From positions 8,198 through 72,197 of the forward strand of contig CAZEIK010000004.1 in the NCBI GenBank assembly GCA_964512315.1: a DNA stretch of 64,000 bases. The letters are read 5' to 3'. The position numbers were made by a program, and so were the translations under genes. Shown here in pieces: positions 34,261 through 44,445 of the stretch. Within the stretch, counting starts at the first letter, position 1. Each line of letters starts with the position of its first letter. The notes under the pieces are model-generated. The model made no database searches, was not told the DNA's origin, and saw only the letters and a list, made by a program, of their open reading frames with translations. This DNA is from an uncultured Candidatus Saccharibacteria bacterium (GTDB lineage Bacteria; Patescibacteriota; Minisyncoccia; Phycocordibacterales; UBA5272).

Positions 34261-34338
34261 AGAAAAAATATATGGCTTTTAGATACGATTAATTATAATC
34301 CTCAAAAGTTTTTATATTTAAAACTTATCCACAAAAAA

Positions 34339-40040: not shown

Positions 40041-41093
40041 TTAAATTAATCTCGACATTGCTAGGCCTATTGCATGTGAGAAGCTTGGAGAAATATCAAT
40101 CAAGTTTTGTCTTAAAGATTCTGGAACTTCAACTCTTTCAAAAGGTCTAGATACTTTTACCTCTACTCCTAACTCTTGGGCGAATAATTCTTGCAAACCT
40201 TTTGTACGGGCCCCGCCTCCTGTTAACCAGACCTCAGTACATTTTGTAGTATACCTCGTCTCAAAGCGAGAACGTATGTGTATAACTTCGTCAATTACCC
40301 TCCTAGCAGCAAATACAGCCACATCTCGGAGTAGCGGCATATTGTTAGAACCTAGAATGCCGAACTCTTTTTTAGTTAACTCCGCTTCCGCAAAAGTCAT
40401 ACCCATAGACTCACGAATATGCTCAGTAATACTGTACACACCTTTCATTGTACTTTCTGCGCCATACAAGACACCCTCGTATACAAAAGCCACACTTGTT
40501 AATGTTGCACCAAGGTCTATGATCAGTGTTGGATTATTCTTATCTATTGGTGTCGCGCGTAATGTGCCGAATATGCCCGGCTCAATAGTAACCTCAGCCT
40601 CTGGGACCAAGTTGTCGACCACTCTGTGCATCATCTCTACCGCTGACTGCTTAGCAGCAAGAACTAATACATTAATAGTGTCGTCTTTCTGATGTGGATG
40701 TGGTGGCAGCTTCTCATAAGATACAGACAAGTCAGCATAAGGCACATTCATATATCTACGAACCTCTATCGGCACAACTGTATCCAGTATTTCTTCTGCA
40801 GCTCGCGGCACTGTTATATGCAGTAATTGGCACGCACTCATAGGGAGGCCTACTGTAATGTTTTTAGATATTGCTTTGGAAGCTTTGTATATGTCAGTAA
40901 CTGCGAATTTTAATTTGTCCTCACCGAGCTTGGTTATCTCACCCGACTCACGTCCTCCATAGGTACCTACCATCTCTTCTGCATAAGTACCCAACTCTAG
41001 GACATTACCTTTTTTATATAACTCTACAAGCTTGATACCTGTGTCACCAATATCCAAGCCTACATTCATATTGGATTGTGTATCGAATAGCAT
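40041..41093 (-). CDS. pilM: PilM (actin-like ATPase of the pilus alignment complex)
   Basis: 350 aa. N-terminal VGLDIGDTGIKLVEL phosphate-1 motif of the actin/HSP70 fold. Confidence 0.85.
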   Translation of the reverse strand: MLFDTQSNMNVGLDIGDTGIKLVELYKKGNVLELGTYAEEMVGTYGGRESGEITKLGEDKLKFAVTDIYKASKAISKNITVGLPMSACQLLHITVPRAAEEILDTVVPIEVRRYMNVPYADLSVSYEKLPPHPHQKDDTINVLVLAAKQSAVEMMHRVVDNLVPEAEVTIEPGIFGTLRATPIDKNNPTLIIDLGATLTSVAFVYEGVLYGAESTMKGVYSITEHIRESMGMTFAEAELTKKEFGILGSNNMPLLRDVAVFAARRVIDEVIHIRSRFETRYTTKCTEVWLTGGGARTKGLQELFAQELGVEVKVSRPFERVEVPESLRQNLIDISPSFSHAIGLAMSRLI

Positions 41094-41110
41094 CTTGGTT
41101 TTAAGTATAC

Positions 41111-41139
41111 AAAACCCTCGCGTGGGATGCGAGGGTTTT
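41111..41139. terminator. Bidirectional rho-independent terminator
   Basis: aaaaccctcgc-gtgggat-gcgagggtttt: an 11-bp G/C-rich stem with flanking A and T runs. It separates the small basic gene from pilM. Confidence 0.7.
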
Positions 41140-41160
41140 GTCTTCCGAAGATGTTGAGAA

Positions 41161-41307
41161 CTATTTTCTCTTTGCAGTCTTCTTAGCAGCTTTTTTAGCT
41201 ACTTTCTTAACTGCTTTCTTCACAGCTTTCTTAGCAACTTTCTTAACAGCTTTTTTAACTGCTTTCTTAGCTACTTTTTTAACTGCTTTCTTTTTTGTTA
41301 CTGCCAT
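41161..41307 (-). CDS. Small Lys/Ala-repeat basic protein (histone H1-like / Hc1-like tail protein)
   Basis: Not in the ORF track (below 60 aa). Minus-strand translation from ATG 41307 to TAG 41161 reads MAVTKKKAVKKVAKKAVKKAVKKVAKKAVKKAVKKVAKKAAKKTAKRK (48 aa). That is five to six AVKKVAKK repeats. The +-strand 61-aa FLATFL ORF (41138..41323) is its mirror. Confidence 0.65.
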   Translation of the reverse strand: MAVTKKKAVKKVAKKAVKKAVKKVAKKAVKKAVKKVAKKAAKKTAKRK

Positions 41308-41485
41308 AGTATATGTAATGTAAAACTTGCGAGAGTGCTAGCATTGATTTGACCATGATCACTCACTCTCAATCATAAGTATCACATGCAAAAAATTTTT
41401 GTGTTACTACTTTTTTAATTTTAATTGTGGATAACTCAAAATTTTTAAATTTGATACAAATGCAAGCGCTTCGCACTTGCATTTA

Positions 41486-43450
41486 TTAGAATCCTAATAA
41501 TGCATCTAGCGCTCGCGTAAATATTGCATCGCCTCCCAGCTTAGCCATCTCACCTTTAGGTAATCTAAAGAAATGTCTAATCATTGCAGATCTTCTTCTG
41601 CGCATCATACGACGAGCCTTCTTCATAAGCTTCTTCTTTAACTTGATTTCTTTTTCATTAGACTCAGGCATATCATTGATCCACTCTCTTGCCTTCGCAA
41701 TGTCTTCTTTAGGGTCACCGAGCGACTCGTTAACATTTTTCTGATCATGATAAGTGAGACCGCTCTTGTGTTTTTCAAAAGGTGTGTACAATTTTTGTAT
41801 CCATCCACCTTTTTCTTGTACAGCTTCTTGTTTAGCTTTGAATTCGAGCTTGCTATTAGCCTCCTCCATATTTATTTGTCTTATCTTGTCTTCAATCTTT
41901 TCAATAACCTCTTCTGCAGCATGGAGCTTCTCCATAACTTCTTTTTCTTTGGCGACTCTCTTTTTATCTACTGCTTCTTTTAATTTTGCTATGCGAGATT
42001 CGGCTTTGTCCAAAATGCTTCTAATCATTGTTCTGGTTGGCTCATTCTCAGGCGTATCAGGCAAAAGGTCTAATTCATCTTGAGCCTCTCTTACCGCTAT
42101 TTCTTCTGCATCTACTAAAATAGTAAATGTCGCCTTTTGCCCATCATCAAAGGACTTGCCTATATCCCTTTTATCACCTTCTTCTTTTACTTGTTTCTCT
42201 ATTAGTACAAGCCTATCAGAAATCTGTCTAGCATTTTCTCTCTGGTCTTTTGCCTCTGGTCTACCCTCAACTTTTTCTCTTAATTGAAAGATCAAGCTAG
42301 CCGCGAACCCTAACCTTCTCTCTAACTCGCTTATCTGTGCGGCAGTCTTTATATCTATTGGAGCTACTGCTGACATACCAAGAACCTTCTCTGTTAAAAG
42401 AGTTTGTATTTCTACCGACACAGCCTCTTGCGCAGCCAACTCATTAATAAATGGCTCCTTATCTGCGTCATCCAACTTCTTATCTTTTTTAAGTGCTTCT
42501 TCTAGTCTTGCTTTTACTTTTGATAAGTCCGCCTCCACTTTATCTAAGCCTTCATTAAGATGATTCCTGGTCTCTGCAAATTCATCGAAAGAATGCTCGA
42601 GCGCGTGCTCAACTCTTTTTAATAGTGGACCAGCACCATATGCAGCATCTCTAGATAAGAAAGCCTCCCAGTTCATCTCTTCTCCCGCAGGAACGTCTTC
42701 GAACTGTTTTCTAATTTTAAGAACTTGGTCCATTAGTCCTTTTTGCGCAGGGTCATCTACGTCTAACTTCATCTTGCCCTCCTTCTTGCCAAGCTTCTTA
42801 GCGTTACCAATTGCTGCCGCATACTCATACAACACACCCTCAAGCTCCACAGCGAACAACTCTTTCTCCGCATCCGAAATACTGCCGCCATGCGCAGCAG
42901 ATTCTATTCTCTTCATTAATGTTACGAGCTTGGTAAGAGATGTGCCTAATGTTCCGGTTACATCCCTAAGAAGCTCAGCTTTCTTTTTCGCTAAGGCTTC
43001 TGGACTACCGTTTTCAATACTTTTCCAAACTGAAGCAAAATCCAAATCATACTCTCTTCTTTTTGCTTCTAAAAACTTATTGATATCAGTTTTGAGTGTC
43101 ACCAACCCAGCCGAGTCAGCCCTCTTTTGATCTTCATTAAGACTGGCGTCAGATCTAACATTTTCTTCCGCGGTAGATATACTACTAAAAACACTCTGGA
43201 CATTATTTAAAAGGCCTTCAATACCTATCAGAATTTGAGTCCTAGCATCTTCTTCACTTATTTCTTTTGCGTCTACTTTTCCTTTATTTTCTTTTAGAAG
43301 AGTAGCCAAACTTGTCCCGAAAGCATTAATTTGATTTTCATAATTTCTTCTAGCTTCTTTTGTATGCGGGCCTCCTTCTGGTTGTTTCTTTTTTTTATTG
43401 CCTGGATTGTTGCTTGGATTATTCTGTTGTGGTGCTCCTCCTAATGCCAT
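41486..43450 (-). CDS. Large coiled-coil hypothetical protein with a Lys-rich disordered N-terminal tail
   Basis: 654 aa. N-terminus PGNKKKKQPEGGPHTKEARR. Extensive charged heptad-like sequence. Arg-rich C-terminus (MMRRRRSAMIRHF). Confidence 0.5.
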   Translation of the reverse strand: MALGGAPQQNNPSNNPGNKKKKQPEGGPHTKEARRNYENQINAFGTSLATLLKENKGKVDAKEISEEDARTQILIGIEGLLNNVQSVFSSISTAEENVRSDASLNEDQKRADSAGLVTLKTDINKFLEAKRREYDLDFASVWKSIENGSPEALAKKKAELLRDVTGTLGTSLTKLVTLMKRIESAAHGGSISDAEKELFAVELEGVLYEYAAAIGNAKKLGKKEGKMKLDVDDPAQKGLMDQVLKIRKQFEDVPAGEEMNWEAFLSRDAAYGAGPLLKRVEHALEHSFDEFAETRNHLNEGLDKVEADLSKVKARLEEALKKDKKLDDADKEPFINELAAQEAVSVEIQTLLTEKVLGMSAVAPIDIKTAAQISELERRLGFAASLIFQLREKVEGRPEAKDQRENARQISDRLVLIEKQVKEEGDKRDIGKSFDDGQKATFTILVDAEEIAVREAQDELDLLPDTPENEPTRTMIRSILDKAESRIAKLKEAVDKKRVAKEKEVMEKLHAAEEVIEKIEDKIRQINMEEANSKLEFKAKQEAVQEKGGWIQKLYTPFEKHKSGLTYHDQKNVNESLGDPKEDIAKAREWINDMPESNEKEIKLKKKLMKKARRMMRRRRSAMIRHFFRLPKGEMAKLGGDAIFTRALDALLGF

Positions 43451-43479
43451 ATATTAGAAAGTATATCACAAGCAAAATG

Positions 43480-43962
43480 TTAAGCTCTAGGTTTTTTACA
43501 CTTTGGAGTCTTACACATACACCCCTTCTCGGCTATGTATTCGTCAAAGAATTCTTGTCCATAGTCATACACTATCTCGTCTCCTGCTTGTATATTTTTC
43601 CTAGCTACTATAAACACGCGACCTTTCTTGATCTCACTCTCAGCATTACCATCACAGCTGTGGTTACAATATCTTGCTATATTCCATCTTGGTGATCCGT
43701 CTATTGTCTTGTCGCGGTGTATTTCAAATAGATACATATTCGGCTTGGCCTCGCGTGAGTCTTTGCCTAACAAAATATTACCTGTGTACTCGATAATAAC
43801 CTCACCCTTTTTAATATCCTCATCGGCGAAAAGCCCGAGTCCGTCTATACCACGCCTCGCTTTTACTTTTTTAAATATATGATTCCTGTCGGCCTTACTT
43901 AACTTTGACTGTGTTTTTTGCATTTTGTTGTATATTTGTATCACAAAACTTAACACTTTCAA
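43480..43962 (-). CDS. SET-domain protein-lysine methyltransferase (bacterial SET with post-SET Cys cluster)
   Basis: 160 aa. GLGLFADEDIKKGEVIIEYTG. NHSC(D)GN pseudoknot motif. Catalytic Tyr context (EIVYDY). C-terminal CMCKTPKC post-SET zinc motif. Confidence 0.75.
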   Translation of the reverse strand: MKVLSFVIQIYNKMQKTQSKLSKADRNHIFKKVKARRGIDGLGLFADEDIKKGEVIIEYTGNILLGKDSREAKPNMYLFEIHRDKTIDGSPRWNIARYCNHSCDGNAESEIKKGRVFIVARKNIQAGDEIVYDYGQEFFDEYIAEKGCMCKTPKCKKPRA

Positions 43963-43965
43963 AAT

Positions 43966-44250
43966 TTATGGCCAAAAAATAGGATCCCTACTTTGGTGTA
44001 TAACTTTTAAAATTCTAACCTCTTTATTTTTTATTTCATAAAATATACAAAATGGAAAGTTTATAAAGTTAATTCTTCTTACGTCGTCATATCTTGTACG
44101 ATACATTGCTGGCTGAGATGACAGACTACTCTCTATTTTTAACAACTCTAATTTAAAATTATTTAAGACTTTAATATCTATATTTTTATAGAATAAAATT
44201 ATATCCAGTAAATCATTCCTAGATATCTCGTTATAGACAACTTTATACAT
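43966..44250 (-). CDS. Type II toxin, RelE/ParE family
   Basis: 94 aa. ParE-like pattern (…YRTRYDDVRR…FCIFYEI…VRILKVIHQSRD). Confidence 0.7.
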   Translation of the reverse strand: MYKVVYNEISRNDLLDIILFYKNIDIKVLNNFKLELLKIESSLSSQPAMYRTRYDDVRRINFINFPFCIFYEIKNKEVRILKVIHQSRDPIFWP

Positions 44251-44260
44251 TTAAAATGAA

Positions 44261-44410
44261 TTATAGACCAAGACTAGAAAAAATATCTTTACTGCTATAC
44301 TTTTTAGAATTCTTTTTAGAGAACAAAGCCCTAGAAATCTCAACTTCTTTTTTGAGGCTACTCGAAATTTTTTGTATAAAAACCTCAACTTTTGAACTTT
44401 GTTTTAACAT
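44261..44410 (-). CDS. Putative small ORF upstream of the ParE-like toxin (candidate antitoxin, speculative)
   Basis: 49-aa minus-strand ORF (MLKQSSKVEVFIQKISSSLKKEVEISRALFSKKNSKKYSSKDIFSSLGL) ending 10 nt before the toxin start. No RHH/Phd-like motif is recognisable. Confidence 0.2.
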   Translation of the reverse strand: MLKQSSKVEVFIQKISSSLKKEVEISRALFSKKNSKKYSSKDIFSSLGL

Positions 44411-44445
44411 ATACATATTATAGCATATTTGATATTATAGTTAAC

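Follow-up and report, generated by a model that had tools for sequence, protein, structure and literature searches.

We examined a 64,000-nucleotide (nt) stretch of DNA from an uncultured Candidatus Saccharibacteria bacterium (assembly GCA_964512315.1, contig CAZEIK010000004.1, positions 8,198 to 72,197 of the forward strand), here called the window, in which a gene for a SET-domain lysine methyltransferase is followed on the minus strand by a mini-gene for a 48-amino acid (aa) peptide of lysine/alanine repeats, here called KA. An earlier reading of the letters of the window (the sequence-only reading) had proposed a chromatin-like module of three consecutive minus-strand open reading frames (ORFs), with a 654-aa coiled-coil protein as the third member; all three ORFs were present where it had placed them. 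On the gene orders compared here, the conserved unit is a two-gene neighbourhood, SET and KA, across a deep clade of the ultra-small Patescibacteria, and not three genes. Judged by the SET tree, the pair is ancient and was retained through rearrangements and insertions, no better than the adjacency of SET with the valyl-tRNA synthetase (ValRS) gene. Whether the two products are an enzyme and its substrate stands evenly balanced in our judgement; the link is plausible, and we infer it from the gene pairing. The concept of SET enzymes that act on basic chromatin proteins in prokaryotes is already established, whereas the SET-KA gene pairing, the repeat-only mini-protein family, the DnaA-box promoter region and the RNA hairpins described below appear to be new; full-text literature searches for SET domains in connection with Patescibacteria, Parcubacteria or the candidate phyla radiation (CPR) returned nothing relevant. 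The three ORFs are as follows.

43480..43923, minus strand: gene encoding a SET + post-SET lysine methyltransferase of 147 aa, with its probable start at ATG 43923 (listed ORF 43480..43962)
41486..43450, minus strand: coiled-coil ORF, 654 aa, an insertion between the SET and KA genes
41161..41307, minus strand: KA mini-gene, 48 aa, a conserved coding ORF

The SET gene, the KA mini-gene and their neighbourhood

The SET protein is, on its motifs, profile match and modelled fold, a canonical minimal SET + post-SET lysine methyltransferase, as the sequence-only reading had it. The ORF matched Pfam PF00856 with E=1.8e-23 and 83.4 bits (cut-off 22.4), covering domain positions 1-105 of 105, and it contains the GxG motif (RGIDGLGLFA), the pseudoknot NHSC, and the catalytic Tyr within EIVYDYG (ELxYDY type); the motifs for binding S-adenosylmethionine (SAM) and for catalysis were invariant in a 19-sequence alignment. 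The post-SET cluster of the window protein, CMCKTPKC, is of the form CxCx4C and is predicted to bind zinc together with the Cys of NHSC; this form is rare (3/118 homologues), the family consensus being CxCx4H (112/118). The best matches among PDB sequences were the SET + post-SET regions of KMT2D, KMT2C and KMT2A (E down to 2.7e-17), followed by NSD1, EHMT and ASH1L, with GLGLFA, ARYCNHSC, EIVYDYG and CxCx4C in register with KMT2D/KMT2C. An AlphaFold2 (AF2) model of moderate quality (pLDDT 63, pTM 0.60) was submitted to Foldseek, and the top PDB matches were all SET lysine methyltransferases (E about 2e-7, TM about 0.5). The protein thus resembles the SET + post-SET region of KMT2/MLL in its best sequence and fold matches and in the alignment of GxG, NHSC, the Tyr of YDY and post-SET, and it is of a size with minimal viral vSET or isolated SET cores; unlike KMT2/MLL, the window protein is without N-SET, WRAD-interaction or reader domains, and its family mostly carries CxCx4H. 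More than 1000 homologues were found, labelled mostly Patescibacteria, Paceibacterota or Saccharibacteria, and the exact 147-aa protein is held by NCBI, JGI and ENA as 'SET domain-containing protein'. The sequence-only reading had given 160 aa; that ORF is real, but the TTG at 43962 is probably 13 codons too early and the ATG at 43923 the true start, because relatives and public gene calls begin there.

In most SET orthologues, the N-terminus is extended by a Lys-rich stretch of about 50 aa (mean 28% K+R), and [AVIT]KK[AVIT] motifs that resemble the KA repeat were found within the extensions of 48/108 orthologues. The N-terminus MKKKQSxILKKGG, followed by the Lys-rich stretch of about 50 aa, was seen in 50/118 homologues; the window protein has a short version only, MQKTQSKLSK. 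This stretch could serve for automethylation, act as a pseudosubstrate, or tether the enzyme to nucleic acid. The K-Q-S/T context of these N-termini (homologues P0012-P0118) is loosely like the H3K4 region.

The KA peptide of the window reads MAVTKKKAVKK(VAKKAVKKAVKK)n...TAKRK; half of its 48 residues are Lys/Arg (50%), none is acidic or aromatic, and a composition scan found no second ORF of this kind within the 64 kb. A word-based homologue search with the 48-aa peptide gave nothing usable because of its low complexity, and orthologues were found instead by ORF-composition scans and by searching for a non-coding signature. Orthologous ORFs of 16-65 aa were recovered at 62 loci (49 distinct peptides), with 47.5% K, 28.5% A and 12% V arranged in period-4 xxKK repeats, a MAAKKKA-type start and a [TS]AKRA-type end; no D, E or aromatic residue occurred in any of the 49. 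By its pattern of substitution, the 48-aa ORF is a genuine, selected protein-coding gene, and its conservation, which the sequence-only reading had left to be checked, is borne out. Orthologues of equal length differed at 204 third positions compared with about 100 first and about 100 second positions; the L017 and L021 genes differed by 7 synonymous and 0 non-synonymous changes; and AAG made up 63% of Lys codons in KA genes compared with 34% in neighbouring genes, a bias that fits translational selection or the avoidance of slippery poly-A. The gene is also called by the JGI and ENA gene callers. A hydrophobic antisense ORF (41138..41323, plus strand) was considered as the real gene and rejected: antisense stops occur in several orthologues, variation falls at the third positions of the sense frame, and promoter, ATG, stop and terminator are kept on the strand of the Lys frame.

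The sequence-only reading had called KA histone-H1-like, and of this the tail-like composition stood while the homology did not. Pfam returned nothing for KA at E<=0.1 and NCBIfam nothing meaningful, and KA matched neither Hc1 (PF07432) nor the globular domain of linker histone H1 (PF00538); as far as these profiles reach, the likeness to histone-type proteins is to low-complexity tails only, and is compositional, with no detectable homology. KA has the properties by which H1-tail-like Lys/Ala repeat polycations are grouped (at least 40% Lys/Arg, Ala-rich, short period, non-acidic, variable repeat number), these polycations being a functional class and not a homology family. Composition, short-period repeats and variable repeat number are shared with the H1 C-terminal domain, Hc2, AlgP, PhaF (KPAA), HupB and HbhA (AAKK/AKKA), whose repeat regions bind DNA, RNA or polyphosphate; the Lys/Ala-repeat region of HbhA, for example, binds DNA (PMC10665949). 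In all of these, the repeat is a tail on a folded domain, whereas KA is repeat only, and its unit, (A/V)KK(A/V), with Val and almost no Pro, has no detectable homology to those tails. Five KA peptides were looked up by exact match in a collection of 15 billion proteins and none was present; with the family missing from protein databases, surveys of CPR nucleoid proteins would therefore miss it. When the initiator Met is removed, the window peptide begins AVTKKKAVKK and has A1, T3, K4, A7 and K9 in common with histone H3 (ARTKQTARKS); that an H3-like N-terminus lies beside an enzyme closest to the H3K4-type MLL SET domains is a speculative detail.

Co-occurrence of the two genes in related genomes had been set beforehand as a refutation test for the pairing, and it was assessed from both sides. 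In a SET-anchored set of 80 loci, 33 loci of the closer SET clade, to which the window belongs, were informative, and a KA ORF lay downstream of SET on the same strand in 28 of them, usually after a gap of 190-450 nt; small KA ORFs were found nowhere else in about 1.2 Mb of SET flanks. Metagenome contigs were then scanned independently of SET with the non-coding KA signature (AGTTATCCACA-N40-45-ATAMT-N6-10-GAGAG). This yielded 34 loci with a KA ORF, 27 with enough upstream DNA to judge, and SET was directly upstream in 23/27; another 46 matches of the signature had no KA ORF and came from unrelated DnaA-box settings in other bacteria. By both counts, the pairing withstood the refutation test. 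On the SET tree, the KA-linked SETs form a single clade with three secondary KA losses (L002; L004/6/7; L011), and the SETs outside this clade, from other CPR lineages and Alphaproteobacteria, are all without KA. Upstream of SET, Hsp20-ValRS is conserved in about 30/33 loci; the neighbours downstream of KA vary (SecA-like, HPF, PilMNO, GlmS-like and others). The SET-KA pair was kept without ValRS in L003 and L025, and was kept despite insertions of 0.7-3.7 kb between the two genes.

The control region of the KA gene

Alignment of 27 KA loci upstream of the gene, together with the pairing analyses below, showed KA to be a predicted transcription unit of its own, in which a DnaA-box promoter region, a structured leader and a terminator are conserved; such conservation argues for a regulated, expressed gene. 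The upstream blocks occur in the order hairpin ATGCAAAnnCTTCGCATTTGCAT, A/T-rich stretch, AGTTATCCACA, TTGTnT-N17-TGnCATACTT, GAGAG. The features in the window are:

41458..41484, minus strand: hairpin AAAUGCAAG(U)GC-GAAG-GCCUUGCAUUU, marking the upstream border of the KA control region
41426..41436, minus strand: 11-mer AGTTATCCACA, which contains the DnaA-box consensus TTATCCACA and precedes the inferred transcription start of KA by about 58 nt
41378..41383, minus strand: -10-like hexamer GATACT, extended by a preceding TGt (CATACT in most relatives)
41308..41370, minus strand: inferred 5' leader of the KA mRNA, with outer helix, GGUC hairpin, A/U-rich stretch and ATG
41111..41139, minus strand: KA terminator hairpin AAAACCCUCGC-AUCCCAC-GCGAGGGUUUU, with conserved loop (C/A)UCCCA(C/U)

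The 11-mer was invariant in 27/27 aligned loci and occurs as one copy per locus, at the KA gene (also at the cut ends of the truncated loci L018 and L020). TTGTnT-N17-TGnCATACTT reads as a -35 box and an extended -10 box with rigid spacing in the 27 loci, and the DnaA box lies at a fixed 41-44 nt from the -10-like box, which therefore places it near -58. GAGAG follows the -10-like box by 7-9 nt, and transcription is inferred to start near 41370. DnaA-box-regulated promoters include those of dnaA autoregulation, of nrdAB, and of the DnaA regulons of Caulobacter and Bacillus; the KA region would resemble them in that a perfect TTATCCACA box precedes a promoter-like site by a fixed distance. We know of no DnaA-controlled histone-like gene.

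The KA box was also considered as part of oriC and this was rejected. It is a single box, there are only two exact boxes in the 64 kb, with one-mismatch matches at chance level, and there is no GC-skew switch, the sign of the skew being identical on both flanks of the locus; the few exact boxes and the unbroken skew therefore exclude an origin. The other exact box (34325-34333, plus strand) is intergenic, flanked by two type IV pilus cluster genes that lie on the minus strand. In unrelated bacteria (L147, L153, L094 and others), the signature was found upstream of dnaN, upstream of a dnaQ-like exonuclease gene, or in multi-box, origin-like regions, and these contexts serve as an internal control that the 9-mer behaves as a DnaA box elsewhere. 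An ORF of 37 aa (41369..41482) was set aside as spurious, since it overlies the conserved non-coding control region.

The inferred leader is 58-84 nt long, and its GAGAG(U) start pairs with (A)CUCUC; in the window, GAGAGUG (41364-41370) pairs with CACUCUC (41331-41337) as an outer helix around a hairpin whose loop holds an invariant GGUC (41351-41354). MAFFT alignment followed by RNAalifold gave no structure for the leader because the helices were misaligned; pairing in leader and terminator was scored instead by helices anchored on GGTC and CTCCCA in gap-free windows. These windows had been admitted only with at least 5 loop-proximal pairs, which biases the inner pairs but leaves the outer pairs and the slid controls unaffected. 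The inner stem of the leader had a mean of 5.8 bp compared with 3.2 bp for shuffled flanks, with 23 distinct pairing-preserving stem variants (the inner stem of the window is only 4 bp). In the subset with a GGUC tetraloop, 98% of cells were paired, double changes occurred at 6/7 pairs, and G.U pairs were frequent, which points to a hairpin formed in RNA and away from a DNA palindrome. The terminator stem had a mean of 11.5 bp with 37 distinct stems and a CUCCCA-type loop in 45/54 loci; compensatory changes occurred at all 12 pairs, and 99.7% of cells were paired compared with about 45% when the alignment was slid. The CUCCCA loop was missing in four KA loci that lack SET and also in L025 and L033.

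The sequence-only reading had given KA its own terminators. For the downstream side, this was upheld by the covarying 12-bp helix; on the upstream side (41458..41484), there is a conserved hairpin only, which is a candidate terminator or insulator, or a protein site. The sequence of this block (ATGCAAAnnCTTCGCATTTGCAT) is conserved in most loci, and in the window it stands directly after the stop codon of the 654-aa ORF. A simple promoter/terminator scan detected neither KA-flanking hairpin because their T-runs are interrupted. Rfam (release 15) had nothing near threshold in 41050-41520, leader and terminator being without a family, and the leader structure (41331-41370) may represent a so far undescribed cis-regulatory motif in the RNA of CPR bacteria. 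The KA ATG has no Shine-Dalgarno sequence before it and is preceded, at a distance of about 12 nt, by a TATAAT-like box; KA may therefore have a second promoter, of leaderless type.

Possible roles of the pair and alternative readings

The role of bacterial SET proteins inside their own cells is a long-standing question, since nearly all of the characterised ones target host histones. The sequence-only reading had taken the chlamydial SET system as the only characterised one in bacteria, and this was wrong: SET proteins of Legionella, Burkholderia and Bacillus have been characterised against host histones (PMC3980110). In that review, the action of chlamydial cpnSET on Hc1 is the only bacterial case with an endogenous substrate, and it comes from one study only; cpnSET interacts with both Hc1 and Hc2, and of these it methylates Hc1 (Murata et al. 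2007, via PMC3980110), whereas NUE, its chlamydial orthologue, is secreted as an effector and showed no methylation of Hc1 (PMC3980110). The window resembles cpnSET/Hc1/Hc2 in combining a bacterial SET with very Lys-rich, repeat-containing proteins in a small-genome bacterium. It differs from cpnSET/Hc1 in that the partner is a repeat-only peptide of 16-65 aa without PF07432, the genes are conserved neighbours, and the organism is a CPR bacterium. In the archaeon Methanosarcina mazei, Go1-SET methylates the chromatin protein MC1-alpha (Manzur & Zhou 2005, via PMC3980110). Go1-SET is likewise a minimal prokaryotic SET, and one that acts on an endogenous DNA-binding protein; unlike the present system, it is archaeal, and MC1 is folded and not a low-complexity repeat. 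We know of no conserved gene pairing for Go1-SET and MC1-alpha.

A half-lysine peptide beside a conserved SET gene offers a concrete and cheaply testable substrate hypothesis. The KA peptide would be an isolated analogue of the linker-histone C-terminal tail, or would act like the repeats of Hc2, AlgP or HupB, serving as an abundant counter-ion by which a polyanion, most probably the DNA of the nucleoid, is coated and condensed. Its synthesis would be tied to DnaA, and hence to replication status, through the box near -58; the neighbouring SET would methylate KA lysines with SAM and so tune the affinity of the peptide or shield it from proteolysis; and the enzyme would be recruited to that polyanion by the Lys-rich N-terminal extension that most SET orthologues carry. 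We put even odds on this account. Replication control may, as the invariant DnaA box suggests, be linked to the supply of a nucleoid-coating protein. Taken as a whole, that is, as a minimal chromatin writer and substrate with a DnaA-controlled tail-like peptide, lysine methylation by an MLL-like SET, and hairpins for post-transcriptional and possibly autoregulatory control, the scheme is tentative and we would not call it likely. If true, it would be a bacterial parallel of replication-coupled histone synthesis, and this CPR clade would hold the first bacteria whose genomes carry a histone-like protein and a methyltransferase as a dedicated pair.

Several observations weigh against this enzyme-substrate account, and most of them also speak for a rival one, in which KA arose once at the edge of the conserved Hsp20-ValRS-SET block and stayed there, working independently, while the target of SET lies elsewhere (in a ribosomal or translation protein, in SET itself, or in a different nucleoid protein). 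The SET-KA association is, by the SET tree, of single origin, so that the counts given above describe retention and not repeated independent gain; and ValRS-SET adjacency, presumably non-functional, is retained equally (about 30/33 loci compared with 28/33 for SET-KA). Single origin and equal retention together make the adjacency suggestive of functional linkage and not decisive. SET remained intact in the three lineages that lost KA (L002; L004/6/7; L011), and all of the distant SETs are without KA; SET therefore needs at least one other substrate. Conversely, four divergent KA loci have MurB or a HAD-type hydrolase upstream and not SET. The two genes are also separate transcription units: in typical loci, SET is followed by a terminator hairpin and KA is preceded by a promoter-like DnaA-box region, which is not the arrangement of an operon, and KA has its separate promoter and terminator. 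Set against inheritance by descent are the frequent breaks on the downstream side of KA, while the SET-KA side survives inserts of 0.7-3.7 kb and loss of ValRS, and the fact that a lysine methyltransferase beside a half-lysine peptide is a biochemically obvious pairing for which precedents exist. We consider such a neighbourhood by descent only a serious alternative, although on balance an unlikely one.

Two further points touch the ligand and the regulator in the writer-and-substrate scheme. The identity of the DnaA box comes from its match to the consensus, and DnaA control is putative; and the ligand of KA could be RNA or polyphosphate and not DNA, since KPAA repeats bind specific mRNAs in PhaF and AlgP associates with polyphosphate granules (PMC12818456). 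KA would then be an RNA-, ribosome- or polyphosphate-binding polycation, for example a modulator of translation, comparable to the KPAA repeats of PhaF, or a mini-protein associated with ribosomes, with or without modification by SET. The conserved mRNA hairpins could be autoregulatory binding sites for such a peptide. An HPF-like gene (MQINITHHNFELTE...) lies directly after KA in L031 and L145, and directly after SET where KA was lost (L004, L006, L007), a neighbour that may hint at a ribosome or translation connection. The four-fold range of KA length (16-65 aa) is unlike structurally fixed ribosomal proteins, however; no similarity to a ribosomal-protein family was found in Pfam or NCBIfam, and the DnaA box points toward replication coupling. 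We regard this polycation alternative as rather unlikely.

That SET is an exported effector acting on host histones or chromatin, KA being irrelevant, seems improbable. Most characterised bacterial SETs do target host histones (PMC3980110), e.g., RomA/LegAS4, NUE and BaSET, and the window protein has a weak NCBIfam match to the LegAS4 effector (43 bits, cut-off 550); CPR bacteria are, moreover, often episymbionts. However, its 147 aa are nearly all catalytic core, with no signal peptide or secretion-associated domain, and the family is chromosomal and vertically inherited in a housekeeping context beside ValRS. The known hosts of cultivated CPR bacteria are prokaryotes.

The three-gene arrangement, in which the 654-aa protein would be a scaffold and its Lys-rich tail a second SET substrate, is largely refuted as a general arrangement, and we think it improbable for the window as well. 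In its favour, the 654-aa ORF starts 29 nt past the SET stop with no hairpin between them, and co-transcription with SET in the window is therefore probable; its close relatives (92%, 56% and 48% identity; P0125) are always found in the order SET-X-KA-PilM. But the gene lies between SET and KA only in the narrow subclade of the window. A search of 5.8e9 clusters gave 3 homologues of the protein, and a profile search gave 13 representatives among 1.84e9. Distant relatives (P0127, P0128, P0130) belong to another cassette without SET (L085:2-6226, L087:3-5813, L088:700-5878), consisting of a 500-1000-aa protein, an 81-83-aa protein and a coiled-coil protein, with a UvrD-like helicase after the coiled-coil gene in two of the distant cassettes (L085-L087); these proteins have no Pfam domain except for a marginal COG6_N match. 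The Lys-rich N-terminal stretch, which the sequence-only reading had compared with a histone tail, is not conserved even in the 48%-identical relative, the conserved part being the C-terminal half with an Arg-rich helix (RRMMRRRR). The protein is predicted to be all-helical with low confidence (AF2 pLDDT 55, too poor for a fold search), and it had no Pfam, PADLOC or meaningful PHROG match, nor did these libraries yield anything meaningful for its partners in the distant cassettes. Other lineages have unrelated inserts at the same position, including cassettes like diversity-generating retroelements (DGR; L005:10912-13363, L035:3987-7375, also L010, L138, L156 and L166) with a reverse transcriptase (PF00078, E=2.9e-27), target-like genes of 185-229 aa and a bAvd-like four-helix protein (35 bits, below cut-off); such varied inserts make the SET-KA spacer an insertion hot spot. 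By this distribution, the 654-aa gene is a later, lineage-specific insertion within a narrow subclade and not a member of the module.

Least likely of all, and very improbable, is that KA is a cationic amphipathic membrane-active peptide (antimicrobial or host-lytic) and not a nucleic-acid binder: its period-4 xxKK pattern with Ala/Val recalls designed cationic helical peptides, but hydrophobicity is very low (Ala/Val; no Leu, Ile, Phe or Trp), there is no leader peptide and no export, immunity or processing gene nearby, and the promoter context with its DnaA box is housekeeping-like.

Surrounding genes and minor observations

The genes on either side of the SET-KA locus in the window include:

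43966..44250, minus strand: ParE-like toxin gene with a PF05016 match, a context gene outside the module
downstream of KA, in minus-strand order: pilM, pilN, pilO and further type IV pilus genes

The ParE-like toxin gene that the sequence-only reading had noted upstream of SET was confirmed (PF05016, E=1.4e-9, 38.8 bits, cut-off 23). It lies between ValRS and SET in this genome only, and was not at that position in L083, in the other loci, or in L001, a locus of 95% identity; a small ORF beside it (44261..44416, minus strand, 51 aa) may encode the antitoxin. The ValRS and Hsp20 genes are on the plus strand, divergent from the genes on the SET side. The GC content of the region is about 39%, and matches of Rfam 15 covariance models in the window were tRNAs only. 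The SET, 654-aa and KA genes each have no recognisable Shine-Dalgarno sequence in the stretch before the ATG (43924-43950, 43451-43479 and 41308-41330, respectively, minus strand), and each has an A/T-rich or TATAAT-like sequence about 10-12 nt ahead of it. Together, these two features hint at Shine-Dalgarno-independent or leaderless initiation in the source organism.

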